In this document: one piece after another, positions 1 through 34,432 of the stretch
Position numbering within the stretch: the stretch's first letter is position 1
Layout of the letters: the number at the start of each line of letters is the position of its first letter
Source: a virus
Taxonomy: Duplodnaviria > Heunggongvirae > Uroviricota > Caudoviricetes
IMG/VR virus record: IMGVR_UViG_2724679058_000007
DNA: 35,236 bases
Strand: one strand, 5' to 3'
Made by a program: the position numbers and the translations under genes
The notes under the pieces: generated by a model
What the model was told of the DNA's origin: nothing
The model's database searches: none
What the model saw: the letters and a program-made list of their open reading frames with translations, nothing else

Positions 1-77
1 ATGAAACCCGGACCTGAACATGTCTTATTGCGTGATTGTTTCTTTCATTTGATACTGCATTTCCCAGAGTTCAGTAA

Positions 78-134
78 GCGAAATGATGCGCCGCGCGATA
101 AATGCGCCCATTTCCGTGAGATAAATGGCATCGC
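78..134. repeat. Candidate transposase-binding end repeats (possible phage right end)
   Basis: Direct repeats of GATAAATG at 97-104 and 120-127 (23 bp apart) plus related AAATGATGCG at about 83-90, immediately outside the invertase gene. Resembles my memory of Mu R-end sites (CGATAAATGCG); not verified. Confidence 0.3.
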
Positions 135-161
135 TGCGGCGTTTCAATATTTGCAAAAGAA

Positions 162-742
162 TTACAATCCTACCGCGTCACCCTTTCTCTGACCATCTAC
201 CGGAAAATACCGGTACAACGTCGATAACCCCACTCCATAGATAATGGCCAACTGCTGACGGGTATGCCCCTTAACCAATAGCCGTGCAATCTGCTCCCGC
301 TCATGCGGCTTTAATGCGTTGGGCCTTCCACCTGTGCGTCCCTGTGCTCTGGCAGCTGCAATCCGGCAAGTGTGCGTTCAACGATCAGCTCACGTTCCAT
401 CTCCGCCAGCGCCGACATCACATGGAAAAAGAAGCGTCCCATAGCAGTGCTGGTATCAATACTGTCTGTTAAAGAGCGGAAGTGGGCACCGCGTTCATGT
501 AACTCTGATATCAATGCGATCAGGTTCTTAACGCTGCGCCCCAGCCTGTCCAGTTTCCACACGACCAGGGTGTCTCCGCTATTAACGCACTTTAAAGCAC
601 GTTTCAGACCGGGACGGCTGGCAACTTTTCCGCTCATACGGTCTTCAAAAATGCGGTCACAGTTTGCGCTTGTGAGTGCATTACGTTGTAAATCGCTGTT
701 CTGGTCGATTGTTGATACGCGGATATAACCAATGACGGCCAT
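162..742 (-). pseudogene. gin: Gin/Hin-family serine DNA invertase, reading frame interrupted by a 1-nt deletion near 350-362
   Basis: From ATG at 740-742 the product reads MAVIGYIRVSTIDQNSDLQRNALTSANCDRIFEDRMSGK...SLTDSIDTSTAMGRFFFHVMSALAEMERELIVERTLAGL, a serine-recombinase catalytic domain. It then runs into a stop at 311, while a shifted frame continues AAARAQGRTGGRPNALKPHEREQIARLLVKGHTRQQLAIIYGVGLSTLYRYF to a stop at 162-164 (HTH domain). Confidence 0.8.
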
Positions 743-805
743 CAATTCTCCTCCTCTATGTTGCGGTGGGAGGATTTTCACAGATTTCGCTACGTGCAAC
801 TGCTT

Positions 806-830
806 TTCCAAAAACCTTGGTTTGGGAGAA
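806..830 (+). repeat. hix/gix-like invertase crossover site (left)
   Basis: TTCCAAAAACCTTGGTTTGGGAGAA; its 19-bp core CAAAAACCTTGGTTTGGGA (809-827) recurs as a perfect inverted copy at 3004-3022. Resembles Hin/Gin sites as I recall them (AAACCAAGGTTTTTGA). Confidence 0.8.
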
Positions 831-1304
831 GGCTCTGCATTGCCTGTTGGTGTGCCTGTTCCGTGGCCTTCAGCCACTCCGCCAACAGGCTGGCTGAAAT
901 GCAATGGTGCGGCTTTTTCTGCTGAAGAATACCCGGAACTGGCAAAGGCTTACCCGACAAATAAATTGCCTGATTTACGCGGTGAATTTATTCGCGGCTG
1001 GGATGACGGGCGCGGGGTTGATGTTGGGCGTGCTTTATTGAGCCTTCAGGCTGGGATGCTGGAAAAGCACCGTCATATTGTTGTTGCCAATGATGGTTAC
1101 GACACAAAAGATGAATGGGAACTGGCTACGATTTTCAAAAAGACATACACACAAGGACGGGGACTTGATGCCACAAATACAGGAGGGAGTCTGATCCCAT
1201 CACCGACACTTCATTCACGAGGGAGTATCGGTAATACTGGCGGGAGTGAAACCCGTCCACGAAATATTGCATTTAACTTTATCGTGAGGCTGCATAATGG
1301 ATAA
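809..1304 (+). CDS. Alternative tail-fibre C-terminal variable region (Sv'-like), promoterless in this orientation
   Basis: ORF 732..1304 contains FSKNLGLGEGSALPVG, matching PALFVKNLGLG in the expressed fibre gene on the other strand. Only the part distal to the crossover site would be fused to the constant region after inversion. Confidence 0.6.
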
Positions 1305-1899
1305 CGCCGTATTAAATAGCGAGCTTATTGCCACGAAGGCGGGGAATATTACCGTCTATAACTATGATGGTGAAACTCGGGAATATATTTCCACTTCAAA
1401 TGAATATCTTGCCATTGGTGTCGGTATCCCTGCATATTCCTGTTTAGATGCCCCTGGCACACATAAGGCGGGTTATGCTATCTGCCGTTCGATGGATTTA
1501 AACTCATGGGAATATGTGCCAGACCATCGCGGTGAAGTTGTCTATAACACCGAAACGGGAGAATCAAAAGAAATCACAGCTCCGGGTGATTACCCTGAAA
1601 ATACAACCACTATCACCCCTTTATCTCCATACGATAAATGGGATGGTGATAAATGGGTGACCGATACTGAGGCACAGCATAGCGCCGCAGTAGACGCGGC
1701 AGAAGCACAGCGTCAGTCACTGATTGATGCTGCAATGGCTTCCATCGGTCTGATTCAGCTGAAATTACAGGCCGGACGGAAGCTGATGCAGGCAGAAACA
1801 ACCCGGCTTAACGCTGTGCTGGATTACATTGACGCGGTGACGGCAACAGATACCAGCACCGCGCCGGATGTCATCTGGCCTGAACTGCCGGAGGCGTAG
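1297..1899 (+). CDS. Tail fibre assembly protein (U'-like, partner of the alternative fibre tip)
   Basis: 200 aa; C-terminal WVTDTEAQHSAAVDAAEAQRQSLIDAA...LNAVLDYIDAVTATDTSTAPDVIWPELP is the typical Tfa chaperone motif; start overlaps the Sv' stop. Confidence 0.75.
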   Translation: MDNAVLNSELIATKAGNITVYNYDGETREYISTSNEYLAIGVGIPAYSCLDAPGTHKAGYAICRSMDLNSWEYVPDHRGEVVYNTETGESKEITAPGDYPENTTTITPLSPYDKWDGDKWVTDTEAQHSAAVDAAEAQRQSLIDAAMASIGLIQLKLQAGRKLMQAETTRLNAVLDYIDAVTATDTSTAPDVIWPELPEA

Positions 1900-2314
1900 G
1901 CCATTCAATATCTGGCGCACCGGAAGTATCGACCATTTCCAGTGCGTCCAGGTAATCCAGCCACGCGTTATACTGTACCTTTTCGGCGTCTTTCAGCCGT
2001 CCCATTGCAGCTTTTCCCGGCCATTGCTTGCTGTTCATGTACTCGTTAGCCTGGTCGATTAGCAGTTGTTTTTGTGCTTCAGTTGCTGCAACAAGTTCAT
2101 CGTGCGTTGGCGGCGGAATATCACCCCAGGCAGGAAAACCATCTTCACCAGCAATGCGGATTTTCCCTTTCGGTGGTTCGCCTGAATACTCAATAAACAG
2201 TTCTTCATCAACCTCCTTAGCATTGTCAAAATTCATTCCATTTGATTCATAAATTTCCTTCATAGCTATCGGATAGAAAGCATTTGTAGATACATCATAA
2301 AAATATTTATTCAT
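1871..2314 (-). CDS. Tail fibre assembly protein (U-like)
   Basis: Start taken at MNKYFYD; C-terminal ATEAQKQLLIDQANEYM...YNAWLDYLDALEMVDTSGAPDIEWPTPP Tfa motif; AT-rich; immediately downstream of the tail-fibre gene. Confidence 0.75.
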   Translation of the reverse strand: MNKYFYDVSTNAFYPIAMKEIYESNGMNFDNAKEVDEELFIEYSGEPPKGKIRIAGEDGFPAWGDIPPPTHDELVAATEAQKQLLIDQANEYMNSKQWPGKAAMGRLKDAEKVQYNAWLDYLDALEMVDTSGAPDIEWPTPPAVQAR

Positions 2315-2319
2315 TCTAA

Positions 2320-3501
2320 TTATCTCCCGATTGCAATCCATCGAGCGTAAATAAAGGCTGGTGATGATGTTGAATTTAATAATTTGAACTGAGTATTGCT
2401 GATAGGTTGAGCTGCAAAGCTATATACAGCTGAAGCGCCAGCGTTATCATAAGAAGCAACAAGCTGAACTGTACTGTAATTTGTAAAAGGTACGGGGAAA
2501 TTTATAGTCTGCGGATCTCCAATTTGACCAGAGGCTGCAATACCCCACTGGATAATAGTACCTCCTGGTAAAGATGCCCAGCCGGTACCGCTTGTAAAAC
2601 TTGACATATCCGGTATTTGTCCAGAACCTGTACCCACATTTTTTGTTGCCGCCGTTCCAAGCCCGGAAATATCAGATGATGTTGGTTTAAATCCTGTGTG
2701 GTACAACTTATACCAGTCAGAAAATGCAGTATCACTCGCTTTTATCCTCACACTAAAGTCAGGAATGGAACCGAGAGACGCACCGCAGATTTGCCACCCG
2801 GTTGAACCTGAGTTAGCAAATGAAATACCACCAGCCCACTGCCCAGGATAAGGACCGATATTATCTGCAGGGGCAAAATAATCAAAGCGACTGACGTCCA
2901 ACGTCGCCATAGTTCCGCTTACCTGGGCTGCCTTTATTCCAAGCCCCCACCCGCCATTTAAAGCAATTTTACCCGTTTTATCTGTGAAGGATGATTGCAG
3001 TGTTCCCAAACCAAGGTTTTTGACAAACAGCGCCGGGTCAGGAATATCAGCGCCGTTCTGGTCTTTGGCCAGCTTCTCCGCCAGCTTGTTCAACACAGTG
3101 GTCGCAAAATTCGGATCGTTGCCGAGGGCATCAGCCAGCTCTTTGAGCGTATCCAGCGTCTCAGGGGCGCTGCCTGCAAGCGCCGCAAGTGCTTTGGCCA
3201 CAAACTCCGTCGTCGCCAGCTTCTTGCTGTTATCGCTATTTGCAGGCGTAGGCGCTGTTGGTGTGCCGGTGAATGTCGGGCTGGCTTTCGGTGCGTACTG
3301 GGTATGCGGGTCTGCTGCCGCGATATGTTTCGCAAGGTCAGAACCGCCATTTTCAACCTGTTGCTTCAGGTACAGCGTGCGGCTGGCCAGTTGTTTACCC
3401 TGACGGTTAGAAATTCCGTCAGGCCCGCCCAGAACGGGGTCAGAGACCTCAATCTGGTAGATGCCCTCTTCCCACTGCGGGGTTTCAGGTAGGTTTGCCA
3501 T
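2320..3501 (-). CDS. Tail fibre protein (constant N-terminal part plus currently expressed variable C-terminal part)
   Basis: 393 aa, MANLPETPQWEEGIYQIEVSDPVLGGPDGISNRQGKQLASRTLYLKQQ; the hix-like site falls at about codon 160; the C-terminal two thirds are AT-rich and Gly/Ser-rich. Confidence 0.85.
   Translation of the reverse strand: MANLPETPQWEEGIYQIEVSDPVLGGPDGISNRQGKQLASRTLYLKQQVENGGSDLAKHIAAADPHTQYAPKASPTFTGTPTAPTPANSDNSKKLATTEFVAKALAALAGSAPETLDTLKELADALGNDPNFATTVLNKLAEKLAKDQNGADIPDPALFVKNLGLGTLQSSFTDKTGKIALNGGWGLGIKAAQVSGTMATLDVSRFDYFAPADNIGPYPGQWAGGISFANSGSTGWQICGASLGSIPDFSVRIKASDTAFSDWYKLYHTGFKPTSSDISGLGTAATKNVGTGSGQIPDMSSFTSGTGWASLPGGTIIQWGIAASGQIGDPQTINFPVPFTNYSTVQLVASYDNAGASAVYSFAAQPISNTQFKLLNSTSSPAFIYARWIAIGR
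3001..3025 (-). repeat. hix/gix-like invertase crossover site (right), inside the tail-fibre gene at the constant/variable junction
   Basis: Plus strand TGTTCCCAAACCAAGGTTTTTGACA; inverted copy of the 806-830 site. It encodes the shared KNLGLG motif in both tail-fibre variants. A compositional break (GC-rich constant part versus AT-rich variable part) coincides with it. Confidence 0.8.
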
Positions 3502-3503
3502 AA

Positions 3504-4081
3504 TTAACTGCTCCCGTGGTTATAGCTACCGTCATAGTTGACGGTGTTGTTGTAGCGAATGGCGACAGACTGATACTCAAGGCTCGCCAGATGGCAGCGG
3601 GCCGGAGCAAAGGCAGCGAGCGTCTGGCGTAACAGCGCCGCCTGATCGTTAGTAATGGGCTGCTGAAGGATGACGCGATAGACCGCCCAGCTTCTGCATC
3701 GCCATGGACGAAAAGCCCGTTGTACGTGTGTTTGCCGTCGTAGCCAATCTGGCCAGTGCCTTCAATCAGATCCACTTCGCCGAAGCCGAAACGGCGGATA
3801 ATTTCCCGGATTGACCACGGCGTCCCTTTATAGCGGTGCAGCTCGATAGCAGATTTGATAAGCATGCGGCGTACATCGTCCGATTCCGCCAGCTCCCAGC
3901 CATCGCCAAACAGCGAGAACTGCTCGCCCAGCCATGGCAGCGCGGAACTGTCGACGATATCGACGAGATAGACCATCAGTACGCTCAGGTCGATGTTATC
4001 CAGCCGCCCGGCCAGTTTTCCCAGCGTTCTGAGGCTGATATCACCCTCAAGCGGCGGCGGGAGTTGTAGCGGCTCAGCCAT
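3504..4081 (-). pseudogene. Tail/baseplate protein, P2 gpI-like (DUF2313-like), with an apparent frameshift near 3685-3702
   Basis: Frame of ORF 3485..4081 gives a plausible N-terminus up to ...GQIGYDGKHTYNGLFVHGDAE, then low-complexity residues (RSIASSFSSPLLTIRRRCYARRSL...). A shifted frame reads ...AVYRVILQQPITNDQAALLRQTLAAFAPARCHLASLEYQSVAIRYNNTVNYDGSYNHGSS and stops at 3504-3506, 2 nt before the tail-fibre start. Confidence 0.6.
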
Positions 4082-5177
4082 CGGACACCCCGGTCATGTT
4101 AAGAGTGATCGCCGTGCAGTTTGCCCATTCGTTTTCTGCCACCACCCGCAGTGGCGGTGTCACCAGTTCAACCTGGTACACCCCGGAGACGGACAACACA
4201 CTGATAATCTGGCTGGGAACAATATCGCGCCCCAGCGTGGCGGTACGTGATGCCACCCAGTTCTGTATGGCGCTGTTGGCGTTGTCCTTTACCGAGTTGG
4301 CATCCTGGTCGCGGTAGATCGTGATATTGGCTTCAATGGTGTAATCCACCTGCAGAGGTGTTTTAGCCCGCACGGTATCAGTAAGTGGCCTGACTTTTTC
4401 GTCAGAACAGAAACTCTCTACCAGCGTGAGGATGCTGTCGTCCGGCAGGCCGGTACTGAGCAGCGGATACAGCTCTACGGTACCGGGGACCGGGGAAAGC
4501 ACGGCAACATCGACAATGTTGGGATGGGCCTGCATGGCATGAAAGCGGTATGCCATACGGCTTCCGGCGTTGGTGAATGACTCCGGGGCCAGTTTGATAC
4601 GCTCGCGGAGCCTGTCATTGTCTTCCTGCTCAGAACCGCCAGAACTGGCCGCCATATTGGTCACCTGCAGGTCGACGTTATCAATCTCATCGAGCAACTG
4701 ACTGACCTGCGCAGGCTGCCAGCCGTTGCCTGCGGCTCCCGGCTCGGTACAGGTGGCCGTGGCATTGACAAGCAGCAATCCGGCTTTCAGCACTACGTCC
4801 GTATCGGTTGCAAAAATAATGCTGTCGGAAGCGCTGACGCGGGTACCTGCCGGAATCAGCACATCAATGGCCAGTTCCTCATCCACGGAGAACTGGAGCG
4901 TGGTGGTGGCAGGCTGCGCGGCCAGTCGGTATACACCAACCAGTTCACCGAGGTAATCAATCATCGGCTCACGGGCAAAGGCGACCAGATTCTGTTTGGC
5001 CGCTTCCTGCGCCGCCACCCTGACCAGCATTTCGCGGTATGCCCACAGGTCAATCAACAGGCGCTCAGCCTGAGCGGGGTATAGCGTCTTGCCAGTTGCG
5101 GCTTCGTACTGTGCAATCATTTCAGCCGTGATTTTGTCAGCATCACGTTCAATAAAATCGGGTTCTGTCAGCGCCAT
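4074..5177 (-). CDS. Baseplate J-like protein (Mu gp47 / P2 gpJ family)
   Basis: 367 aa; position between gpW-like and gpI-like genes; overlaps both neighbours. Confidence 0.75.
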   Translation of the reverse strand: MALTEPDFIERDADKITAEMIAQYEAATGKTLYPAQAERLLIDLWAYREMLVRVAAQEAAKQNLVAFAREPMIDYLGELVGVYRLAAQPATTTLQFSVDEELAIDVLIPAGTRVSASDSIIFATDTDVVLKAGLLLVNATATCTEPGAAGNGWQPAQVSQLLDEIDNVDLQVTNMAASSGGSEQEDNDRLRERIKLAPESFTNAGSRMAYRFHAMQAHPNIVDVAVLSPVPGTVELYPLLSTGLPDDSILTLVESFCSDEKVRPLTDTVRAKTPLQVDYTIEANITIYRDQDANSVKDNANSAIQNWVASRTATLGRDIVPSQIISVLSVSGVYQVELVTPPLRVVAENEWANCTAITLNMTGVSDG

Positions 5178-5515
5178 AGCAACTCCTGAGTCCGGGGTTG
5201 TCCGTCAGAGCCTTTCCAGCTCACCCGGAGCGTAAGATGTTCGCCGTCGACGGCGGGTTTAACCGACATAAGCTGGCAGCGAGGCTCCCAGCGGCGAATG
5301 GCATCGACGGATTCGCGCACCACATGCGGAATAGCCCGGTCAATAGGCCAGTCGATATAAAGGTGCAGATTGCTGCCGAACTCCGGGCGATGCGGGTCGC
5401 TGCCGCGAGGAGTACGCAGGATGATTTGAATGGCCTGCCAGATATCATCCAGCCCCCGGACGATTTCGCCAGGGGCCTGCAGAGCCGGTTGCCAGAATAC
5501 TGAGGTTGTTTTCAT
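5168..5515 (-). CDS. Baseplate wedge protein, GPW/gp25 family (Mu gp46-like)
   Basis: 115 aa; size and synteny; MKTTSVFWQPALQAPGEIVRGLDDIWQAIQIILRTPRGSDPHRPEFGSNLHLY. Confidence 0.7.
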   Translation of the reverse strand: MKTTSVFWQPALQAPGEIVRGLDDIWQAIQIILRTPRGSDPHRPEFGSNLHLYIDWPIDRAIPHVVRESVDAIRRWEPRCQLMSVKPAVDGEHLTLRVSWKGSDGQPRTQELLWR

Positions 5516-5569
5516 GGGGGCAGTATTGCCCCTGTGCGGGAACGCCGATATTAAAGGCGTTTAAGAAGG

Positions 5570-6082
5570 TCAGTGGGAATGGTGATTAGAGTTCGGGCCG
5601 TCAGAGAGCATGCTGCCTGTCGAGTGGGCATTGCCGTTGATTTCAAGGTTGCCGTTCACCGTGGTGGTGTCAGCGGTCAAATCAATGGTTTTCCCCTTCA
5701 GGCTGATACCCACTGCAACCTCGATCACCACATGCTCGATACCACCTTTGACTGTCAGCGTATGGGTCGCACGGTTATAGCTGAACTCTGCGCCATCCGC
5801 GTATTTCGTGCCCCGGACATTTTTGTCGCTGAACGGCGGTTTATCGACTTCTGAGTACACCGCGCCCAGAATGACACCATCCTCGCCGTTGGCATCGAGC
5901 AGCACCTCAACCTGCTCCCCCACGTCAGGGAGCCAGTAATCCTTGTTATCCTGGGTATTGCGCTGCAGCACGTTAAGCCAGTTAGTGCGCAGGTTATCGC
6001 ATTCCGGCAGACGAACGCGGGCCTGAACCTTGTCGGCATCGACGGCGCTGACCGTACCGACCTGACGGGTGACGCCTGTCAT
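5570..6082 (-). CDS. Baseplate assembly protein V-like spike (Mu gp45-like)
   Basis: 170 aa; synteny downstream of the D-like hub gene. Confidence 0.7.
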   Translation of the reverse strand: MTGVTRQVGTVSAVDADKVQARVRLPECDNLRTNWLNVLQRNTQDNKDYWLPDVGEQVEVLLDANGEDGVILGAVYSEVDKPPFSDKNVRGTKYADGAEFSYNRATHTLTVKGGIEHVVIEVAVGISLKGKTIDLTADTTTVNGNLEINGNAHSTGSMLSDGPNSNHHSH

Positions 6083-7251
6083 TATTTTTTCTCCTTTATT
6101 ACCGTGGACGTGCTGCCGTCCGGTTTATAGACGGTCAGCGTCTGGGTTTTTCCGGTCTTTTTACCTTTCTTCGCTTTGCCCTGCGTAACCGGCCCTCGTG
6201 CCACTTCCAGTTCGGTGATGTAGCCGCTGTTACGGTCAAACGCATGGCGGGCAGTAGTTATCAGCCATGGCCCGGATAACTGACCAAAGCCCACCAGTTC
6301 AATTTTGTTGCCTGCTGTTAGTTGAGGCGTCCCCATCAGCGTCAGCGAGCCGTTCTGCTGGTATTCGTTATGCCTGGCCAGCGCCGAATCTGCTTTAATC
6401 CGGGCGCTGTCCGGGTCACTGACGCGGCTGTTGACCTTCAGTGAGTCGGCACTGGTGACCTTACCGCCTTTGGTTTGTTTGTCGCTTTCGCTGGTACCGC
6501 CATCAGCTTCATAAACGATCAGCTTTTTATCGCTGCTCTTCTGGTGTTTTACCTTCGCGGATTTGTAGACGCGGTTGATGGTGTCACGCAGGGAAAAGCT
6601 AGCCACATCCTGCGGCTTTAACTGCCTGATCGGCTCCTGACCGCGCAACGTGGCAAGATGAGAAAAAACCAGCTGGTCGCTGACCACTTTCACGGCATAA
6701 CCATACTCGCTGGCCAGTCGGCGCAGGAAGCCCACGTCCGTTTCAGCATACTGGGTCACCCGGTCAATTTTGATGGACTCAATACTGCCAACCAGCTTCA
6801 GCTGATGCTTTTTGGCAATCCGTCCGGCGATGGCCGCCAGCGTGGTGCTCTCGAAACCACGACTGGATTTTGTCCGCAGGGCGTTGTTGACCGACGTGGC
6901 CACGCCCCGGATAGCGACAACGGACGCGGGCGAACTCACCTCGATCTCGTCTATAGAGAACGTACCGCAGGACAGCAGCTTCTCGCCCTGATAACCCATT
7001 TTCAGCGTCAGCGTGTCACCCTTGCCCGGATACCACTTATCCAGCCAGCGGCCATCGGTGTCGTCCAGTTCCACCTCAATGGTATCGGACTCGCTTTTGA
7101 TGTTATCGCTGTAGGTTACGCGGGTGACATAGGGGGCGATATCGGTGGTTATGTTCTTCTGCAGATACCACAGCGTGAACACCGGACTCAGAACATCGCT
7201 GACGCCAGTTAACGCTGATGCGGCTTGTGCAGTGCTGTTTATCTCAGCCAT
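6082..7251 (-). CDS. Phage late control D-like / baseplate hub protein (Mu gp44 P-like)
   Basis: 389 aa; size and synteny between tail X-like and V-like genes. Confidence 0.7.
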   Translation of the reverse strand: MAEINSTAQAASALTGVSDVLSPVFTLWYLQKNITTDIAPYVTRVTYSDNIKSESDTIEVELDDTDGRWLDKWYPGKGDTLTLKMGYQGEKLLSCGTFSIDEIEVSSPASVVAIRGVATSVNNALRTKSSRGFESTTLAAIAGRIAKKHQLKLVGSIESIKIDRVTQYAETDVGFLRRLASEYGYAVKVVSDQLVFSHLATLRGQEPIRQLKPQDVASFSLRDTINRVYKSAKVKHQKSSDKKLIVYEADGGTSESDKQTKGGKVTSADSLKVNSRVSDPDSARIKADSALARHNEYQQNGSLTLMGTPQLTAGNKIELVGFGQLSGPWLITTARHAFDRNSGYITELEVARGPVTQGKAKKGKKTGKTQTLTVYKPDGSTSTVIKEKK

Positions 7252-7454
7252 GGGGCAATATCCTCTTCTGTACTGGCTTCTTCAGCCTCGATAACCGGAA
7301 TCAGTAACAACAGCCCGGAGGGCAGCACCGGCGTGATGGCCACGTGTGGATTGGCGGCAATTATCCGGGGATAGCCCAGCGGGTCGCCGTAGTACTGCCA
7401 TGCGAGAGAGTCCCAGCGCTCTCCGTCACGGGTGACATGCTCAAGAAACATCAC
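7239..7454 (-). CDS. Tail protein X-like (LysM-like small tail protein)
   Basis: 71 aa, ...WDSLAWQYYGDPLGYPRIIAANPHVAITPVLPSGLLLLIP, a pattern typical of the phage tail X family. Confidence 0.6.
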   Translation of the reverse strand: MMFLEHVTRDGERWDSLAWQYYGDPLGYPRIIAANPHVAITPVLPSGLLLLIPVIEAEEASTEEDIAPWLR

Positions 7455-8335
7455 ACACTCCTCGCCAGAATTTTGGCTGCCATGCTGCTTAACCCCGGCG
7501 ACATACGGGTGAAGGTGGTGCTGGCGGAGTTAAGCTGCCCGGAAACGGCATCCAGCGCCGCTGCGATATTGCTGCCGTCCACGCCGCTCAGTGAAGACTG
7601 TGCCTGTTGTACATACGTGGCCGCATCACTGGTGGCTCTGGCCAGACTGATGGCATCAGGCATGGATTCAGAGAGCGCATTAAATGCCGGAACGCTTTGA
7701 CCCAACGCCCCGGACACGTTGCCGAGCCCGCTCATCAGCCCCGGTACGCGGGTCAGTGCAACGGTGGGGTTATCCTTCATTTTCTGCGCCACCCGAACGG
7801 CGCTGATGGTGGTCTGGAGAACAGACTGCGCCTGTTTGGCATAGTTGACGCCGTCGCGGACGTACTGCGCCACCCCGGAAGGTGAAGGAACGGCACCGGA
7901 GACCGCCCCGACGCCGGGAACCGTTGTGCGTATTGCAGGAGGCTGTAGCGGGTTTTTCGGGTCGCCGATGTACTCCCGGAGAGACGCGGTGGCATTGACG
8001 GCCAGCACGTTGCCGGTGCTGTCGGTTTGCTCGCTGGTCGCAGTAACATCGGTAATCACGAACCAGCCGCGATAGTCACCGTTGCCGAAGACCAGCGCCA
8101 GCGCCTGATGGGCCTTCATGGCCGTTCGCAGCCTCGCCAGCTCCACGTCAGGCACACAATAGTGCTGATGGAAGACCAGGCTTATCTGGATCTCGTCCAG
8201 CTTATCGCCAACGAACTGCAGGCCGGGCTTACCCTCGATACGGGGATGCTCCGCATAATCGACGCCGAACGTGGCTTCGAAGCCGTCCCAGTAGGTAATC
8301 AGTTCAAACTCAATATCACCCAGTACTGCAAACAT
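7451..8335 (-). CDS. Tail protein, DNA circulation (Mu N-like) family
   Basis: 294 aa, MFAVLGDIEFELITYWDGFEATFGVDYAEHPRIEGKPGLQFVGDKLDEI; directly downstream of the tape measure gene. Confidence 0.5.
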   Translation of the reverse strand: MFAVLGDIEFELITYWDGFEATFGVDYAEHPRIEGKPGLQFVGDKLDEIQISLVFHQHYCVPDVELARLRTAMKAHQALALVFGNGDYRGWFVITDVTATSEQTDSTGNVLAVNATASLREYIGDPKNPLQPPAIRTTVPGVGAVSGAVPSPSGVAQYVRDGVNYAKQAQSVLQTTISAVRVAQKMKDNPTVALTRVPGLMSGLGNVSGALGQSVPAFNALSESMPDAISLARATSDAATYVQQAQSSLSGVDGSNIAAALDAVSGQLNSASTTFTRMSPGLSSMAAKILARSV

Positions 8336-25799: not shown

Positions 25800-26570
25800 A
25801 TGAAAGAACAATCTTTACCCATCGTTCCATGGATTGGCGGCAAACGTCGTCTGGCTAAGCATATTCTGCCGCTGTTCCCGGCCCATACCTGCTATGTGGA
25901 GCCGTTCTGTGGGGCCGCTGCGCTCTATTTTCTTAAGACACCCAGCAAGACCGAAGTCATTAACGATATCAACGGGGAACTGGTGAACCTCTATCGGGTG
26001 GTCAAGCATCATCTGGAAGAATTTGTTCGCCAGTTCAAATGGGCGCTGGTCAGCCGTCAGATTTACAAATGGTTGCAGGATACGCCGGAAGAAACTCTCA
26101 CCGACATTCAGCGGGCGGCCCGGTTCTACTACCTGCAGAAACAGGCGTTTGGCGGCAAGGTGGCCGATCACTCGTTCGGAACCTCCACCACAAGTGCGCC
26201 GCGCTTTAACCTCCTGCGCATCGAAGAAGAACTGTCGATGGCACACCTGCGCCTGTCGAGAACGCTGATAGAGCATCTGGACTGGCACCAGTGCATAGAG
26301 CGATATGATCGCCCGCATACGCTGTTCTACTGTGACCCACCATACTGGGGAACAGAGGGCTATGGTGTGGAGTTCGGGCTGGAAAACTATGATCACATGG
26401 CAGATTTAGCGCGAAGGATCAAAGGGAAGATGATTATATCAGTGAACGATATCCCGGAAATGCGGCAGGTATTCAACGGTCTGAACATGCAGTCGGTTGA
26501 TATCAGCTACAACCTTAAGGTAACAGGTAAACCCAGCCCGAAGAAAGAGCTGGTAATTTGTAATTTTTGA
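25800..26570 (+). CDS. dam: DNA adenine (N6) methyltransferase, Dam family, orphan
   Basis: 256 aa; N-terminal PIVPWIGGKRRLAKHILPLFP, AdoMet motif EPFCGAAALYF and catalytic DPPY (FYCDPPYWG); no adjacent restriction enzyme recognised. Confidence 0.8.
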   Translation: MKEQSLPIVPWIGGKRRLAKHILPLFPAHTCYVEPFCGAAALYFLKTPSKTEVINDINGELVNLYRVVKHHLEEFVRQFKWALVSRQIYKWLQDTPEETLTDIQRAARFYYLQKQAFGGKVADHSFGTSTTSAPRFNLLRIEEELSMAHLRLSRTLIEHLDWHQCIERYDRPHTLFYCDPPYWGTEGYGVEFGLENYDHMADLARRIKGKMIISVNDIPEMRQVFNGLNMQSVDISYNLKVTGKPSPKKELVICNF

Positions 26571-28221: not shown

Positions 28222-29133
28222 ATGGGACGCACAAAATCACAACCAGTTGAACTAGTGGAAGATGCACCGCTGACCGATGGTCTCAGTGTCAGTCTTAATG
28301 CTATGTCCGAACATCGCCTCGAAATCATGCAGCAGTTTGGTGATGGGCTGCCGTATGAACGCGATCGTATTGTTCATGAAACACGTTTTTACATGGCTCA
28401 GAGTGCAGAAGCCATGCTAGAGGCGGGTAAGCGACTGGTAATTCTCAAGGAGAATGAACCTCACGGCGATTTTATAAATATTCTCGAAAATGACCTCGGC
28501 CTTGAGCCGCGCGTCGCACGCCGCATGATGCAGGCCAGTGTGAAATTTTTGGGTAATGGCGATCAAAATTCAAAACGGACAGCGCTGACCGTTTTAGGTA
28601 AGACCAAGTTATATGAACTGATGGTTCTGGATGACGAAGAACTCGACGCATTAGCTGATGGTGGAACCGTCGCCGGGGCAACGCTTGATGATATTGATCG
28701 CATGACAAGCCGCGAACTGAAGGCTGCCCTACGCGAAGCCCGCGAAACCAACGCAGCACAACAGCGCGTGCTCGCCGACAAAAACGAAAAAATCGACTCT
28801 CTCTCCACCAAACTGGAGAAGAAATCCCGTATCCAGCCGCCCAAGCCTGACGAAGAGGTGAAGAAGCTGCGTGCGGAAGTTACAGCGTTAGCGGTTGAGG
28901 CAGAATCTGCCATCGCCGTTCGACTGTCCAGCGCCTTTGAGACCCTGTGCGCATACTGTGCTGAAAATATGATTGATACCCCCAGAGACTTTATGGCCGG
29001 TCTGGTCTGCCAGCTGGAAAGCACCGCGCGTAGCCTGCGCTCCACATTTGACCTGCCGGACGAGCCGACAGGCAACGCCGCCCCTTCATGGCTGACTGAC
29101 CCGACGCCAGAGATTAACGGGCAGGAGGCATAA
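28222..29133 (+). CDS. Hypothetical early protein (303 aa)
   Basis: ORF with GGAG upstream of the ATG; central coiled-coil/acidic region; sits directly upstream of the transposase. Confidence 0.5.
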   Translation: MGRTKSQPVELVEDAPLTDGLSVSLNAMSEHRLEIMQQFGDGLPYERDRIVHETRFYMAQSAEAMLEAGKRLVILKENEPHGDFINILENDLGLEPRVARRMMQASVKFLGNGDQNSKRTALTVLGKTKLYELMVLDDEELDALADGGTVAGATLDDIDRMTSRELKAALREARETNAAQQRVLADKNEKIDSLSTKLEKKSRIQPPKPDEEVKKLRAEVTALAVEAESAIAVRLSSAFETLCAYCAENMIDTPRDFMAGLVCQLESTARSLRSTFDLPDEPTGNAAPSWLTDPTPEINGQEA

Positions 29134-29136
29134 CCC

Positions 29137-30906
29137 ATGAGTGCCGCCCTGACTGAACGACTGGTTTATGTTGCCCGCGCGGCACGTGACGCGGGGCATG
29201 GTAAGCGTGGTGCGATATATGATGCCGCCTGCGCCGAACTGGGCATTTCCCGCGCCACCCTGCTGCGCAAGCTGAAGGAGGTATCAGTGACTGACAAACG
29301 TAAAAAACGCGCCGATGCCGGGCGCAGTGCTCTGAGCCGCGACGAAGCCGCGCTGATATCTGCCACGCTGCGCGAGGCCACCCGTAAGAACGGTAAGCGC
29401 CTGTATTCCATCGCGGATGCGGTGGAGACCCTGCGGTCAAACGGCTTTATCACTGCTGGCAGAACGGACGAGGCCACAGGCGAGTTTTTCCCGCTTTCCG
29501 AGGACACTATCAGCCGCGCCCTGCGGAACTATGGTTTGCACCCGGAACAGCTTGACGCACCGGCTCCGTCATCCGAGATGGCCAGCCTGCATCCCAATCA
29601 CGTCTGGGAGATTGATGCCTCACTTTGTACGCTTTACTACCTGAGCAACGGTCATAAAGGGCTGCAGGTGATGGACAGCGCTAAGTTCTACAAGAACAAG
29701 CCTGCCAACATCGCCCGCATCGCCAGTGACCGCGTGTGGAGTTATGAGATTACCGACCATACCAGCGGCTGGATTTACGTTGAATACGTGATGGGCGCGG
29801 AGTCCGGTGAGAACCTCTGTTCTGTTCTTATTAACGCCATGCAGGAACGCGGCGGCGCTGACGTGCTGCACGGCGTGCCCAAAATACTCTACCTCGACCC
29901 CGGCTCGGCGAACACCGCTGGCATGACGAAAAACATGTGCCGCTCGCTGGGCATCAATCTGATAGCGCACAAGCCGCATAACGCCCGCGCCACCGGGCAG
30001 GTGGAAAAGGCCCGTGACATTATCGAACGCAAACTGGAGCCAGGTCTCAAATTCCAGCCGGTTCATAGCCTGGACGAACTGAACGCGCTGGCGGTGAAAT
30101 GGCGCAGCCACTTTAACGCCACGGCGGTCCACAGCCGCCACGGTAAAACCCGCACGGATATCTGGCTGAAGATTACTGCTGACCAGCTGAAAAAAGCGCC
30201 ATCCGTTGAGGTTTGCCGCGAACTGGCGGTGGCCGCACCTGAACTCCGCAAGGTTACGTCAAAACTGCGCGTCTCGTTCCGGGGCAATGAGTTTGACGTT
30301 TCGACGGTACCGGGCGTACTGGTCGGCGAAAAACTGATGATTACCCGTAACCCGTGGCGCAACGATGTGGCGCAGGTGGTACTGACCGGTGAGGACGGGC
30401 ACGAGACGTTCTTCCTGGTCGAAGAGGTCAGAAAGAACGAGTTCGGCTTTGCCGAAAGCGCGGCGGTATTTGGCGAAAACTACAAAGCCCTGCCAGAGAC
30501 CCCGGCGCAGACGGCGGCAAAAGAAATCGAAGAGCTGGTCACGGGCACCGATAACGCCGCCGATGCAGCTGCTGCACGCAAGGCGAAGGCGCTGCCGTTC
30601 GGCGGGCGACTTGACCCTTACAAACATATCGACGACACCACGCTTCCGGCCTATATGCCGAAGCGCGGTCAGGCTTCAGACGTGCGCGGGCCGCGTATTG
30701 AGCAGCGTCCTATGACTCATGTGGAGGCGGCGAAAGCCCTGCGCGAGAAGTTCAGCGCTAACGGCCATACCTGGACGCCGGAACATTACCGCCAGTTAAC
30801 GGCGCAGTACCCGGATGGCGTACCGGAAGCTGCGCTGGATGAGGTCATGGTCGCCCTGACCACTCCGGCCCGCAACAGCGTTATCAGCATCGTTAACGGT
30901 AACTGA
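29137..30906 (+). CDS. DDE transposase (Mu A-like function, integrase-core/rve-type fold)
   Basis: 589 aa; N-terminal HTH-like region; core begins HPNHVWEIDASLCTLYYL with later KILYLDPGSANTA, typical of DDE integrase-core transposases; followed by a MuB-like ATPase. Confidence 0.8.
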   Translation: MSAALTERLVYVARAARDAGHGKRGAIYDAACAELGISRATLLRKLKEVSVTDKRKKRADAGRSALSRDEAALISATLREATRKNGKRLYSIADAVETLRSNGFITAGRTDEATGEFFPLSEDTISRALRNYGLHPEQLDAPAPSSEMASLHPNHVWEIDASLCTLYYLSNGHKGLQVMDSAKFYKNKPANIARIASDRVWSYEITDHTSGWIYVEYVMGAESGENLCSVLINAMQERGGADVLHGVPKILYLDPGSANTAGMTKNMCRSLGINLIAHKPHNARATGQVEKARDIIERKLEPGLKFQPVHSLDELNALAVKWRSHFNATAVHSRHGKTRTDIWLKITADQLKKAPSVEVCRELAVAAPELRKVTSKLRVSFRGNEFDVSTVPGVLVGEKLMITRNPWRNDVAQVVLTGEDGHETFFLVEEVRKNEFGFAESAAVFGENYKALPETPAQTAAKEIEELVTGTDNAADAAAARKAKALPFGGRLDPYKHIDDTTLPAYMPKRGQASDVRGPRIEQRPMTHVEAAKALREKFSANGHTWTPEHYRQLTAQYPDGVPEAALDEVMVALTTPARNSVISIVNGN

Positions 30907-30916
30907 GGAGGAAGGC

Positions 30917-32083
30917 ATGCTGGTACTGAAGCAACAACTGAAAGAGGCCCGCATCCCGCAGGCGGTGGTGGCAAGAGCTGTCGCCGTTTCCGAGGCCACG
31001 CTGGCCCAGATTGTGAACCATAACGAGTGGCCCCGCACCAGCCCGGAAGAAGTGCGCCAGCGTCTGGCGTCCTGGCTGGAAAGTCAGGGGATTGATACAG
31101 AGAAGAGTTTTGATGCTGCACAGGGCGCAGCCACGCCCCGTACAGCGGGTACTACCGATAAAACCAACCTCAGTGAGGAAGAGAACATGTTACTCAAAAA
31201 GCAGGTGTTATTTCCAGCGACCAAAAAAGCGTTTGGCCTTTTCCGTGACCCGTTCGCCGATGAAGCCATGCAGGGCGCGGACGATGTGTTCACCACGCCG
31301 GATATCCGCTACGTGCGTGAGGCACTGTTCCAGACCGCCCGTCATGGTGGCTTTCTGGCGGTTATCGGCGAGTCCGGTGCGGGTAAATCCACGCTGCGCC
31401 GCGACCTGATTGAACGCGTCAACCGCGAGAACGCGCCGGTGATTGTAATCGAGCCATACATCATCGCCATGGAAGACAACGACGTGAAGGGCAAAACTCT
31501 CAAGGCGGCAGCTATCGCCGAGGCCATCATCAGCACCATCGCGCCACTGGAGAGCATCAAACGCAGCCAGGACGCCCGCTTCCGACAGTTGCACCGCGTC
31601 CTGAAGGACAGCAGCCAGGCGGGTTTTAGCCACGTTCTGGTGATTGAGGAGGCCCACAGTCTGCCCATCCCGACGCTGAAGCACCTCAAACGCTTCTTTG
31701 AGCTGGAATCCGGCTTCAAAAAACTGCTGTCCATCGTGCTGATTGGCCAGCCTGAGCTGGCGGACAAACTGTCCGAACGCAACATGGAAGTCCGTGAGGT
31801 CGTCCAGCGCTGCGAGGTGGTTGAACTGCTGCCGCTGGACAACAGCCTCGAAGAGTTTCTGACGTTCAAACTGCAACGTGCCGGTAAGCAGCTGGCCGAC
31901 ATCATGGACGCCAGCGCAGTGGAAGCCATCCGTGCTCGCCTGAGCAATCTGGGCAGCAACCGTAAAAGCATGGTCAGCCTGCTGTATCCGCTGGCCGTCA
32001 GTAACCTGGTGATAGCCGCCATGAATCTGGCTGCTGAAATCGGGGTTCCGCAGGTCAACGCCGACGTCGTTAAAGGGGTTTAA
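30917..32083 (+). CDS. Transposition ATPase (Mu B-like AAA+ protein)
   Basis: 388 aa; strong RBS GAGGAGG before the ATG; Walker A GESGAGKST; N-terminal HTH-like segment. Confidence 0.75.
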   Translation: MLVLKQQLKEARIPQAVVARAVAVSEATLAQIVNHNEWPRTSPEEVRQRLASWLESQGIDTEKSFDAAQGAATPRTAGTTDKTNLSEEENMLLKKQVLFPATKKAFGLFRDPFADEAMQGADDVFTTPDIRYVREALFQTARHGGFLAVIGESGAGKSTLRRDLIERVNRENAPVIVIEPYIIAMEDNDVKGKTLKAAAIAEAIISTIAPLESIKRSQDARFRQLHRVLKDSSQAGFSHVLVIEEAHSLPIPTLKHLKRFFELESGFKKLLSIVLIGQPELADKLSERNMEVREVVQRCEVVELLPLDNSLEEFLTFKLQRAGKQLADIMDASAVEAIRARLSNLGSNRKSMVSLLYPLAVSNLVIAAMNLAAEIGVPQVNADVVKGV

Positions 32084-32085
32084 TC

Positions 32086-32355
32086 ATGAAATCCATCGCC
32101 GATATCAACCAGCAGATGAACAAGGTGCAGTCCGCCATTATGGCGCTCAACGCCATGAACACCACCGTGCAGAGCGTCATGATTGCGGGCAGTAAGCCGG
32201 TTATCCGTATCGCCCGCAACGGGCACTGTGCCCGCCTGCTGGAGCAGGGCAAAGCGAGTTATACCCATGTTGGTCATGACGGTTCAGGGCGCTTTCGTCA
32301 GGGCGTCTTTGAGTTGCATGGCTGCCGTATTACCTGGTCAGAGTCATTACATTAA
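32086..32355 (+). CDS. Hypothetical protein (89 aa)
   Basis: ORF with AAAGGGG upstream; no family recognised. Confidence 0.4.
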   Translation: MKSIADINQQMNKVQSAIMALNAMNTTVQSVMIAGSKPVIRIARNGHCARLLEQGKASYTHVGHDGSGRFRQGVFELHGCRITWSESLH

Positions 32356-32372
32356 CCACAAGGTGAACAGAG

Positions 32373-32984
32373 ATGAGCGAAGTAAATAAAGAAGACTACA
32401 TGAAAGACCGCAAGGGGCGTCTGGTGCCGGTTGACCAGGTGTCTGACTATGACCTTGCGATGGATTCTTTCGTTAAAGAACAGGTTGCCGCCGCGAAAGT
32501 TAAACGCGATGAACTCAGCGACTTCAAGCGTCGTGCCTTTGACGAGTGCTATGCCTGGCTTGACCTTGTGGCCGAGAAGTACGGCAGAACGCGTGGCGGT
32601 GCCAAAGGCAACGTGACCTTCAGCAGCTTCGACGGTGCTCAGCAGATCACCATCCGCGTGCAGGAAACCCTGACCTTCGGGCCAGAGCTGCAGATTGCCA
32701 AAGACCTGATAGACGAGTGCGTCACCGAGTGGTCGGAAGGCGCGAACGCCAACCTGCGGGCCATCATTAGCGATGCTTTTCAGGTGGACAAAGAGGGCCA
32801 GCTTAATACCGGGCGTATTCTTTCCCTGCGCCGCGTCAAGATTCAGGACGAGCGCTGGAACCGGGCAATGGAGGCCATATCGGAATCACTGCAGGTGGCA
32901 ATGTCCAAAACCTATATTAATTTCCGGGAGAAAGATAAACACGGGAAGCTAATTAATATTCCGTTAGATATCGCTGCCATTTAA
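32373..32984 (+). CDS. Mu-like prophage early protein (DUF3164-like)
   Basis: 203 aa, MSEVNKEDYMKDRKGRLVPVDQVSDYDLAMDSFVKEQVAAAKVKRDELSDFKRRAFDECYAWLDLVAEKYG; position after the B-like gene. Confidence 0.5.
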   Translation: MSEVNKEDYMKDRKGRLVPVDQVSDYDLAMDSFVKEQVAAAKVKRDELSDFKRRAFDECYAWLDLVAEKYGRTRGGAKGNVTFSSFDGAQQITIRVQETLTFGPELQIAKDLIDECVTEWSEGANANLRAIISDAFQVDKEGQLNTGRILSLRRVKIQDERWNRAMEAISESLQVAMSKTYINFREKDKHGKLINIPLDIAAI

Positions 32985-33062
32985 TTTTAATTCAATTTCT
33001 TTTTATTTCGGCGTCAGCGCCGTGGGCTTCTGCACGCCGAAAACAGTATTGAGGAATAAATC

Positions 33063-33251
33063 ATGTCCATCAAATGTTCCAACTGTAAGAAAGGTATCAC
33101 CACCCTGAAGTTCAGCGACGCCAGCGTCATCGCCTCTGGCAAATACCATGTGCCAGCCGTCCTCATCACGCTGGTATGCCCTCACTGCAGCCAGCATTAC
33201 TACACCGAAGTCCCGACCATGGAGTTCATCCCCTGCGAGGCAACAAAATGA
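33063..33251 (+). CDS. Small zinc-ribbon protein
   Basis: 62 aa with two Cys pairs (CSNCKKG ... CPHCSQH). Confidence 0.45.
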   Translation: MSIKCSNCKKGITTLKFSDASVIASGKYHVPAVLITLVCPHCSQHYYTEVPTMEFIPCEATK

Positions 33252-33544
33252 AAGGCATGAAATTATATAACCGTTCGACGATCTACAATCTGGCCCTGAA
33301 AACCTTTGGTCCTGAAGCACAGGCGCTGAAGCTGATGGAGGAAGCCTCCGAGCTGGCCGCAGCTGCCGCCCGCAACATGAACGGACTGGGCAATGAAGTT
33401 GATCTGGCTGGCGAACTCGCTGACGTTGAAATCATGATTGAACAGTTCCGCCTTAACGGGATGGGCCTGATGATTGATTTTCATAAACAGAAAAAGCTGG
33501 AACGCCTTGCCGAACGCCTGGGGGTGACTTATGCCGCAGAATAA
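33248..33544 (+). CDS. Possible MazG-like nucleotide pyrophosphohydrolase
   Basis: Start at MKGMKLYN (ATGA overlap with upstream stop); LMEEASELAAAAARN and LAGELADVEIMIEQF resemble MazG-like EExxE/ELADV helices. Confidence 0.4.
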   Translation: MKGMKLYNRSTIYNLALKTFGPEAQALKLMEEASELAAAAARNMNGLGNEVDLAGELADVEIMIEQFRLNGMGLMIDFHKQKKLERLAERLGVTYAAE

Positions 33545-34220: not shown

Positions 34221-34432
34221 TGGCTGAATCTATTGTATGTTCCCTGTTCTGGTATGGTCTCGTGGGGTGGTGTACCGCTGAACTGCATCGCCGCTCAGGG
34301 TTTTACTCACGTTACAGCGGTGCCGGACACTGGATCAGTTGGGCCGTTATGTTCCTGTGCTGGCCTGTAGCGCTTCCTTTATATGTCGATTATATCGGTG
34401 GCGCAGGTAAAAGGAGTGGCGATGATGACTAG
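34217..34432 (+). CDS. Small membrane protein
   Basis: 71 aa with two hydrophobic helices (IVCSLFWYGLVGWCTA, ISWAVMFLCWPVALPLYV). Confidence 0.4.
   Translation: MMAESIVCSLFWYGLVGWCTAELHRRSGFYSRYSGAGHWISWAVMFLCWPVALPLYVDYIGGAGKRSGDDD

Follow-up and report, generated by a model that had tools for sequence, protein, structure and literature searches.

A Din-family invertible tail-fibre segment predicted in a BcepMu-like transposable prophage of Escherichia coli

Most probably (with a probability of about 0.85), the locus described here is a programmed inversion of the Din family (Hin/Gin/Cin/Pin-type), by which the tail fibre of a BcepMu-like prophage of E. coli changes its receptor-binding tip. 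The segment is real but it is an ordinary, textbook Din-family switch, already annotated in public records. Coordinates refer to the window, that is, the whole stretch of 35,236 nt that was analysed. A first-pass annotation had proposed an invertible host-range segment at this place, within a phage whose other modules were thought not to be of Mu type. The hallmarks of a Hin/Gin-type invertible segment were recovered in our analysis; the description of the phage had to be abandoned.

The segment is bounded by a 19-nt inverted repeat, CAAAAACCTTGGTTTGGGA, present at 809-827 (+ strand) and at 3004-3022 (- strand) with 0 mismatches. It forms a single pair: no further copy was found in the 35-kb window when 3 mismatches were allowed, and none in 100 shuffles. 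If mismatches are tolerated between the arms, the inverted repeat extends to 24 nt (92%; arms 804-827 and 3004-3027, separated by 2176 nt). Both copies read AAA AAC CTT GGT TTG GGA, which is translated as K-N-L-G-L-G; these codons occupy 810-827 on the + strand, and on the - strand they are numbers 161-166 in the fibre ORF (393 aa; 3501->2320). The perfect repeat and its position on the KNLGLG codons, both pointed out in the first-pass annotation, were thus found as described.

Each arm is contained in a 26-bp hix-like site. The invertase-proximal site (805-830), which holds the left arm, reads TTTCCAAAAACC TT GGTTTGGGAGAA, with its core TT at 817-818. The fibre-proximal site (3001-3026), which holds the right arm, reads TTGTCAAAAACC TT GGTTTGGGAACA in the direction of the fibre gene, its core appearing on the + strand as AA at 3013-3014. 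The two sites are therefore inverted 26-bp sequences with imperfect 12-bp half-sites and a common, symmetric 2-bp core (TT/AA), as is the rule in the Din family, and they adjoin an invertase gene, in agreement with the hix/gix-like boundaries initially proposed. Most of the 28 IMG/VR relatives examined likewise have two sites with a TT/AA core, arranged as here, and their tip cassettes are many and varied. In 27 of these 28 relatives (the exception being L033), a site is located at one fixed distance upstream of the invertase ATG, and its outer half-site, GGTTTTTGGAAA, is constant. The distance between site core and invertase ATG is 75 nt, which equals the hix-hin spacing. A multiple-inversion system (Min of p15B) and an Rci shufflon were also considered. 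Multiple-inversion systems have more than two crossover sites, and shufflons use a tyrosine recombinase; both were rejected, since only two sites were detected (3 mismatches allowed) and the recombinase is of the serine type.

The genes are arranged as in a switch of the Mu G-segment type, with a constant 5' part outside the segment and two opposed cassettes inside, each made of a tip and a chaperone. The constant N-terminal part of the tail-fibre gene (3015-3501, - strand; codons 1-162 and the first base of codon 163) immediately follows the gene for tail protein I, and is 88-99% conserved in most members of the family. It is now fused to fibre tip A (2320-3014, - strand; Gp53-like_C, PF21882, E = 1.5e-13), giving the 393-aa fibre, and the 147-aa tail-fibre assembly chaperone A has the same orientation as tip A (1871-2314, - strand; Caudo_TAP, 1e-30; phrog_188, 1.1e-58). 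The opposite strand carries a silent fibre tip of the collar type, tip B (810-1304, + strand; Collar, 1.1e-15; phrog_523, 8.5e-75), which has no N-terminal part of its own, together with the co-oriented, TfaE-like assembly chaperone B of 200 aa (1297-1899, + strand; Caudo_TAP, 8.7e-31; phrog_105, 6.1e-97). The 3' ends of the two chaperone genes overlap by 29 nt (1871-1899). These domain matches give substance to the initial description of two opposed fibre C-terminal regions, each with its own assembly gene, within about 2.2 kb. The proposal that inversion swaps the fibre tip was equally sustained: in a simulated inversion, tip B joined the constant part in frame. Because the crossover point is inside codon 163 (Leu), the constant part of the fibre gene is joined in frame either to tip A and chaperone A (fibre of 393 aa) or to tip B and chaperone B (324 aa).

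A gene for a Hin-like serine DNA invertase (162-742, - strand; Resolvase, 3.1e-44; HTH_7, 1.2e-13) directly adjoins the segment, on its outside. Din-family invertases are small serine recombinases (about 190 aa) whose N-terminal domain is catalytic, with Ser10, and whose C-terminal domain is an HTH. The assembled ORF lacks one nucleotide near base 359 (GG to G), which leaves the gene in two pieces: 742->311 (143 aa) encodes the catalytic domain and 359->162, in another frame, the HTH DNA-binding domain. This deletion is absent from the first-pass annotation. Apart from the one missing G, the gene is 100% identical to an intact gene of E. coli 21KM1392, whose product has 193 aa. The repaired invertase is full length and matches the Gin structures 4M6F and 3UJ3 (E = 3e-77); 160 of 190 residues (84%) are identical to those of Hin, and identity to Gin is 65% in a global alignment and 69% in a local one. 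Hin residues K47, R/K48, K/R51, Q151, R154 and L155 contact Fis and the enhancer, and are specific to DNA invertases (PMC3798978). The repaired protein has the same six (K47, R48, K51, Q151, R154 and L155), and Ser10, Arg8 and Arg43 are present as well.

A candidate recombinational enhancer was predicted by sequence at 655-718 (- strand), in the 5' portion of the invertase gene and colinear with the hin enhancer. In the Din family, the enhancer consists of two Fis sites and is situated where the invertase gene begins, some 100 bp away from one recombination site. The candidate contains two 15-bp Fis-type cores (704-718 and 655-669), each matching hin at 13 of 15 positions; between them, the AT-rich motifs ATTTA and TAATG are both kept, without indels and at equal spacing. 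The positions of the hin Fis cores used in this comparison are presumed, in part from PMC3798978. Identity to hin is 83% over the enhancer stretch, compared to 92% over the following 300 nt of coding sequence. As the stretch is no better conserved than the next 300 nt, its conservation can be explained by coding constraint alone, and conservation was dropped as a functional test of the enhancer.

By comparison with the rest of the family, dimers of the invertase would bind the two 26-bp sites (805-830 and 3001-3026), and a Fis-bound enhancer at approximately 655-718 would assemble an invertasome on supercoiled DNA. Both sites would be cut at the central TT/AA, half of the tetramer would rotate by 180 degrees, and the ends would be rejoined, leaving the segment of about 2.2 kb (817-3014) flipped. 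Dependence on Fis, the position of cleavage and the change of host range are what the homologues lead us to expect. As in Mu and P1, a population of lysogens would release virions of two host ranges.

Judging by its genes and by the one phage end present in the window, the host phage is a BcepMu-like transposable prophage of E. coli, of Mu type in the broad sense. The transposition genes are those of a DDE transposase (phrog_310, 3.7e-146) and an AAA+ DNA transposition ATPase (phrog_296), and they are accompanied by Mor (1.2e-42) and Portal_Mu (1.6e-79). The right end of the prophage (84-160; TGATGCGCCGCGCGATAAATGCG) is Mu-attR-like, with a TG end at base 84, while bases 1-83 are E. coli chromosome (DUF2625 gene). 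This phage end, which resembles the Mu right end, is identical in relatives L001, L002 and L006 but joined to different host DNA, and the insertion site of the relatives differed in every genome examined, usually being inside a gene. The transposase, the AAA+ protein, Mor, the Mu-type head genes, the many insertion sites and, for the end that is visible, the TG...CA termini are the traits by which Mu-like and BcepMu-like phages are recognised; they contradict the initial claim that the other modules are not Mu-type. Muvirus, or Mu proper, was nevertheless rejected as the host, given that nucleotide relatedness is lacking, the transposase is of BcepMu type, and the tail resembles those of P2 and BcepMu. 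A megablast search with 25 kb of the window gave no DNA similarity to Mu, and matched KP12, Phi06_2974 B, PhiKM and BcepMu-like phages. In backbone, KP12 and Phi06_2974 B share 96-98% identity with the window and PhiKM 86%; for BcepMu and phiE255 the figure, taken over the tail sheath, is about 75%. The window also carries a recombinant baseplate-fibre block (3005-8335), 93-98% identical to 21KM1392.

The window is a single assembled sequence in which one orientation of the segment is visible. When bases 1-4100 were compared with complete E. coli genomes, both as they stand and after simulated inversion, no genome reached a coverage of 80%. Since this exact combination of flank and cassettes is absent there, evidence on orientation was taken from sister pairs. 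Between relatives L014 and L016, the segment is 99.2% identical and inverted relative to the invertase gene. The cassette made of the collar tip and the 200-aa chaperone occupies the expressed position in L001, L006 and L008, and is silent in the window and in L002. E. coli strains UPEC132 and N50 carry, in their P2-like prophage, a segment 98% identical to that of the window; its orientation is reversed from one strain to the other, and the flanks are 99.97% identical. Judging by the joints, the exchange lies within 4 bp spanning the central TT, a stretch common to all four half-sites.

These pairs bear directly on whether the repeat could be a mere coding motif, KNLGLG, carried by two paralogous opposed fibre genes in which no site-specific recombination occurs. 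The repeat does lie wholly within coding sequence, and the motif is common to many fibre genes. A coding motif, however, would account neither for the 26-bp hix/gix architecture with its symmetric TT/AA core, nor for the fixed 75 nt to a Hin-like invertase gene, nor for a tip B without its own N-terminal part, nor for natural pairs of near-identical prophages in which just this inversion is the difference and the exchange maps within a few bases of the core. This explanation can be set aside with near certainty. It is also very improbable that the switch is maintained chiefly because it serves the host, with inversion yielding fibre-derived proteins that block the adsorption of other phages. 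The idea has a precedent in PinQ, encoded by the cryptic prophage Qin; this serine recombinase is reported to invert cryptic prophage DNA, with the effect of inhibiting adsorption of phage T2 (PMC12529663). Against it, the prophage is complete except for three suspect deletions and is under purifying selection, close relatives have been deposited as phage records, and the cassettes are ordinary tip and chaperone pairs fused to a baseplate-attached fibre, with no pointer to defence in the window.

Whether this switch is still operative in the window depends on how the deletions are read. Over about 27.6 kb (8335-35236 plus 84-831), comparison with the 21KM1392 prophage gave 0 substitutions and two single-base deletions; a third single-base deletion is located in the diverged block. 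Frameshifts are thus present at 359, 3690 and 19206, and the genes affected are those for the portal, tail protein I and, at 359, the invertase. Each of the three deletions removes one base from a 2-nt homopolymer and disrupts an ORF that relatives have intact. Among real mutations, substitutions are normally much commoner than indels; 27.6 kb with 0 substitutions but two deletions thus leads us to regard the base missing from the invertase gene as a probable error of assembly. Methylation-related nanopore error was rejected as a general explanation, because two of the three deletions are outside CCWGG (Dcm) contexts.

If the three deletions were real, the prophage would be defective, and the segment would be locked unless another Din invertase acted in trans. 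The locus would then be a decaying switch in a defective remnant, with an invertase deprived of its HTH domain, a broken portal and baseplate protein I, and a fibre frozen at tip A, and any flipping would have to come from another resident Din invertase. We regard this as unlikely. The frameshifts do stand in the assembly, and decayed relatives do exist, such as the IS26-truncated L016 and the segment-less L038. In addition, no public contig offered an independent copy: the truncated invertase and the 393-aa fibre had no exact match in public assemblies, and a 28-mer spanning the invertase deletion had none in IMG/VR. For real mutations, however, 0 substitutions beside two 1-nt deletions in some 27.6 kb would be very unlikely, and the restriction of all deletions to single bases in 2-nt homopolymers also speaks against decay. 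So does the state of the coding sequences, as no nonsense mutation was found in the 47 CDSs compared, and substitutions in the diverged block amount to 121 synonymous versus 17 non-synonymous.

The import of the locus beyond correct annotation is small: it is one more textbook case of temperate phages hedging their host range. For annotation, the fibre gene and its tip merit listing as two alternative products, and the apparent pseudogenes (invertase, portal and tail protein I) call for caution before the prophage is called defective. More tentatively, the segment may serve as a portable host-range cartridge, passed from one prophage lineage to an unrelated one through exchange at hix-like cores; in E. 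coli, the same cartridge circulates among P2-like and Mu-like prophages. This possibility is suggested by the 98% identity between a BcepMu-like and a P2-like prophage, with similarity ending at both crossover sites. It might be added, with the same reserve, that the invertase lineage of the phage family, which is unusually close to Hin (84-88% identity, equal site-ATG spacing and colinear candidate enhancer), may be the stock that supplied Salmonella with its hin-hix-enhancer module.

Among known phages, the nearest in backbone are the BcepMu-like ones, namely the Bcepmuvirus members BcepMu and phiE255 and the enterobacterial KP12, Phi06_2974 B and PhiKM; the window differs from them in its pair of tip cassettes and its recombinant baseplate-fibre block. 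The KP12 record already annotates a DNA-invertase beside the fibre genes, and a preprint mentions in passing that a phiE255-like prophage of ST131 E. coli has an invertase and shows rearrangement of its fibre. Besides this passing note and general surveys of programmed inversions, our literature searches found no dedicated description of the segment in this BcepMu-like family, nor of the closeness of its invertase to Hin. The P segment of e14 with Pin, and the fibre segments of P2-like prophages (UPEC132 and N50), have the same cassette organisation, and e14 has a related site, CGAAAACCTTGGTTTGGGAGAA, and a tfaE homologue. Their invertases, however, are 66-67% identical to that of the window, their outer half-sites and constant fibre parts differ, and their hosts are lambdoid or P2-like integrating phages, compared to a transposable one here.

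The closest invertase is that of the Salmonella Hin/hix/H segment system (84%), with all Fis and enhancer-contact residues kept, the same 75-nt spacing from core to ATG, and a colinear candidate enhancer; the outer half-site is GGTTTTTGGAAA here and GGTTTTTGATAA in hin. The two systems differ in what is inverted: Hin lies inside its own 1-kb segment and flips a promoter for fljBA, whereas the invertase of the window is outside the segment, and inversion exchanges the coding 3' ends of a fibre gene. In this respect the locus resembles the Mu G segment with Gin, and in parallel the P1 C segment with Cin. The genes follow the same order (constant part, site, tip and chaperone, opposed chaperone and tip, site), the invertase is outside the segment and read in the same direction as the fibre, and the host phage is transposable. 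The sites are also of 26 bp, the fibre-proximal one matching gixL at 17 of 26 positions by our count, and the invertase is 65-69% identical to Gin. The segment differs from that of Mu in its length (2.2 kb compared to about 3 kb), in its core (TT/AA compared to TC/GA), in tips and chaperones that are unrelated at the DNA level, and in its BcepMu-type backbone.

With a probability of about 85%, the segment between the two 26-bp sites is a host-range switch of the Hin/Gin type. Directly legible in the DNA are two inverted 26-bp sites, an adjoining Hin-like invertase gene, two tip-and-chaperone cassettes, an in-frame swap and natural inversion products in sister elements. A perfect 19-bp inverted repeat, CAAAAACCTTGGTTTGGGA, lies at window 809-827 (+ strand) and 3004-3022 (- strand) with 0 mismatches, as the first-pass annotation had claimed. 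No further copy was found in the 35,236-base window with 3 mismatches tolerated, and matches occurred in 0 of 100 dinucleotide-preserving shuffles. With mismatches permitted, the arms reach 24 nt at 92% identity, with a spacing of 2176 nt between them. Both arms read AAA AAC CTT GGT TTG GGA and encode K-N-L-G-L-G in the fibre reading frames, where the motif had been placed earlier: on the + strand as codons 810-827, on the - strand as codons 161-166 of the 393-aa ORF. Each arm falls within a 26-bp hix/gix-type unit, namely the fibre-proximal site (3026 to 3001, in fibre-gene direction; TTGTCAAAAACC TT GGTTTGGGAACA) and the invertase-proximal site (805-830; TTTCCAAAAACC TT GGTTTGGGAGAA).

The tail fibre ORF (3501 to 2320, - strand, 393 aa) matches fibre families in its N-terminal part and ends in tip A, a Gp53-like_C domain (E = 1.5e-13); assembly chaperone A (2314 to 1871, - strand, 147 aa) is a Caudo_TAP protein (1e-30). 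On the + strand, tip B (810-1304), a collar-type fibre C-terminus (Collar, 1.1e-15), begins precisely at the left repeat without an N-terminal part of its own, and chaperone B (1297-1899, + strand, 200 aa) is TfaE-like (Caudo_TAP, 8.7e-31). These are the two opposed C-terminal regions, each with its assembly gene, that had been described from the sequence. The mapped positions and strands of fibre parts, chaperones, repeats and recombinase gene give this arrangement: the constant fibre part, a site, tip A with chaperone A, chaperone B with tip B on the opposite strand, the second site and the invertase. A simulated cut of the window at both central dinucleotides (817-818 and 3013-3014), followed by reversal of the segment, fused tip B to the same 162 N-terminal codons in an unbroken fibre of 324 aa. 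The swap is thus in frame in both states, in agreement with the exchange of tips that had been proposed.

Evidence that such segments flip comes from sister elements, not from the source genome itself. The P2-like prophage of E. coli UPEC132 contains a segment with 98% identity to window 800-3017, the whole of the invertible segment. Strain N50 carries this same prophage, with flanks 99.97% identical and flanking proteins of identical accession, and its 2352-bp segment, 99.83% identical to that of UPEC132, is inverted. The exchange is bounded by AAACG or ATACC on the outside and by GGTTTA or GGTTTG on the inside; because these four half-sites differ mutually, the joints fix it within a 4-bp identical stretch around the central TT. 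Two IMG/VR members of the Mu-like family, L014 and L016, likewise have a common 1722-bp segment (99.2%) in opposite orientation relative to the invertase gene. An IS26-type transposase cuts the L016 prophage (1-3036) short right upstream of this segment. The cassette of collar tip and 200-aa chaperone occupies the expressed position in 21KM1392, G5 and KP12, and the silent position in the window and Ecol_542.

The sites were surveyed in 28 IMG/VR relatives whose invertase is at least 94% identical. In 27 of the 28, 81 nt (in two loci, 80 nt) separate the start codon from the invertase-proximal site upstream of it, whose outer half is always GGTTTTTGGAAA. At the fibre-proximal site, most loci have TTGTCAAAAACC as outer half; the central dinucleotide is TT/AA, and the inner halves differ from cassette to cassette. 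One family member, L038 (5438-6001), is devoid of the invertible segment: a single hybrid site, TTCTTAAAAACC TT GGTTTTTGGAAA, joins both outer half-sites, and the fibre ORF ends 8 codons past it, which leaves a tipless fibre. The loss is precise, in a family whose sites are in inverted orientation.

The serine recombinase gene starts at 742 on the - strand, immediately outside the left repeat (Resolvase, 3.1e-44; HTH_7, 1.2e-13). As assembled, its ORF ends after 143 residues and the HTH domain lies in another frame. The 748 nt from phage end to site are equal to those of the E. coli 21KM1392 prophage, where the gene is intact (193 aa), except for one absent G (TTGGC to TTGC, near base 359). 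The repaired invertase matches the Gin crystal structures 4M6F and 3UJ3 over its full length (E = 3e-77); its identity is 65% to Gin by global alignment (69% by local BLAST), 67% to Pin of e14, and 84% (160/190) to genuine Salmonella Hin, the latter taken from locus L040, where the gene adjoins fljB and fljA (L040 5914-6573). Catalytic Ser10, Arg8 and Arg43 are kept, as are K47, R48, K51, Q151, R154 and L155, residues specific to Fis/enhancer-dependent invertases (PMC3798978). Over its first 90 nt the gene is colinear with the hin enhancer, with two 15-bp Fis-type cores (13/15 each compared to hin) and the intervening ATTTA and TAATG segments retained; this is consistent with a candidate recombinational enhancer. 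The stretch is 83% identical to hin, compared to 92% for the coding sequence after it; being no better conserved than the downstream coding sequence, it fits an enhancer but adds no independent evidence.

Phage tail-fibre invertases include a whole clade with 79 to 88% identity to Hin; of the 80 loci recovered, those of the window's family come closest (84 to 88%, compared to 79 to 83% in other phage backgrounds). A literature search found no paper discussing this closeness. Many Salmonella 'viral' contigs of IMG/VR (L040-L072) terminate exactly at hin and carry fljB and fljA, and are therefore the chromosomal flagellar switch swept into provirus predictions; in some of them the H segment is oriented with hin and fljB divergent.

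The break in the invertase gene is more probably an assembly artefact than a true mutation. Three single bases of the 21KM1392 prophage are missing from the window, each from a 2-nt homopolymer: at 359, breaking the invertase; at 3690, breaking tail protein I; and at 19206, breaking the Mu-type portal. Window 8335-35236 together with 84-831 (approximately 27.6 kb) holds two of these deletions and 0 substitutions relative to 21KM1392, which is unlike what real mutation is expected to leave, and assembly errors are therefore the probable source of all three. Nonsense codons were absent from the 47 genes compared with 21KM1392, and the diverged block shows 121 synonymous and 17 non-synonymous substitutions. 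If the invertase deletion were real, inversion could still come in trans, as Din invertases are known to cross-complement.

The observation of the first-pass annotation is confirmed and its reading partly supported: an invertible fibre switch is probable, but its denial of Mu-type modules elsewhere in the phage is contradicted. The window encodes a DDE transposase (29137-30906; phrog_310, 3.7e-146; rve), an AAA+ DNA transposition protein (30917-32083; phrog_296, 2.2e-91) and a Mor activator (34817-35236; 1.2e-42), grouped at its far end (28222-35236), as well as a Mu-type portal (Portal_Mu, 1.6e-79) and a virion morphogenesis protein. Base 84 is where likeness to relatives begins; the sequence there, TGATGCGCCGCGCGATAAATGCG (TGATGCGCC...), is similar to the right end of Mu, TGAAGCGGCGCACGAAAAACGCG. 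Bases 1-83 are host flank, 100% identical to an E. coli DUF2625 gene. In other E. coli genomes the same phage end adjoins a truncated rlmC (split by the prophage in 21KM1392), an aldolase gene, yjfY and further loci, as transposition would be expected to produce. The nearest deposited phages are Klebsiella phage KP12 (98%), Escherichia phage Phi06_2974 B (96%) and PhiKM (86%); remoter DNA similarity extends to BcepMu and phiE255, and none to Mu was found among deposited phages. Transposition genes, portal, phage end, insertion pattern and closest phages mark the window as a transposable prophage of the BcepMu-like kind, inserted in the DUF2625 gene; its tail is of the P2/BcepMu type. The window breaks off with the stop codon of Mor, so that neither the other phage end nor the target duplication is part of it. 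The early/accessory region includes a DNA adenine methylase gene (25800-26570) with 78% DNA identity over approximately 310 nt to that of Vibrio phage VP882.

The window is a mosaic. Deletions apart, it is 100% identical to the 21KM1392 prophage from 8335 onward; identity drops to 93 to 98% in the baseplate-to-fibre block (3005-8335), and the invertible segment differs. Recombination appears to have replaced the tail module at its host-range end. Compared with the P2-like prophage loci L003 (3001-5360) and L005, window 800-3027 shares the segment at 98%, but flanks, invertases (66%) and outer half-sites differ. That similarity stops inside the 26-bp sites on both sides suggests exchange of whole cartridges between unrelated phages at the crossover sites.

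By analogy with Hin and Gin (PMC3798978) and with established knowledge of the family, invertase dimers on the two sites and Fis on the enhancer would assemble an invertasome on supercoiled DNA; the 2-bp core would be cleaved, half of the tetramer would turn 180 degrees, and the ends would be religated. Each lysogen would make one fibre type, so that a population would release two host-range types. A switch of this textbook kind is already known: tail fibre, tail protein I and tail fibre assembly genes are among the most enriched targets and neighbours in surveys of programmed inversions (PMC9881135), a DNA-invertase is annotated beside the fibre genes in the KP12 record, and a preprint mentions an invertase and a rearranged fibre for a phiE255-like ST131 E. 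coli prophage. Mildly interesting are the occurrence of one segment in P2-like and Mu-like prophages at 98%, and the closeness of the invertase family to Hin. The locus belongs to the Din-family inversion systems and operates as the Mu G segment does, with the same gene order; Mu differs in core dinucleotide, cassettes and backbone, its gixL (TTATCCAAAACC TC GGTTTACAGGAA) matching the fibre-proximal site at 17 of 26 positions. The Salmonella hin system shares with window 162-830 a nearly identical outer half-site and the same 75 nt from site core to start codon, and differs in what is switched.
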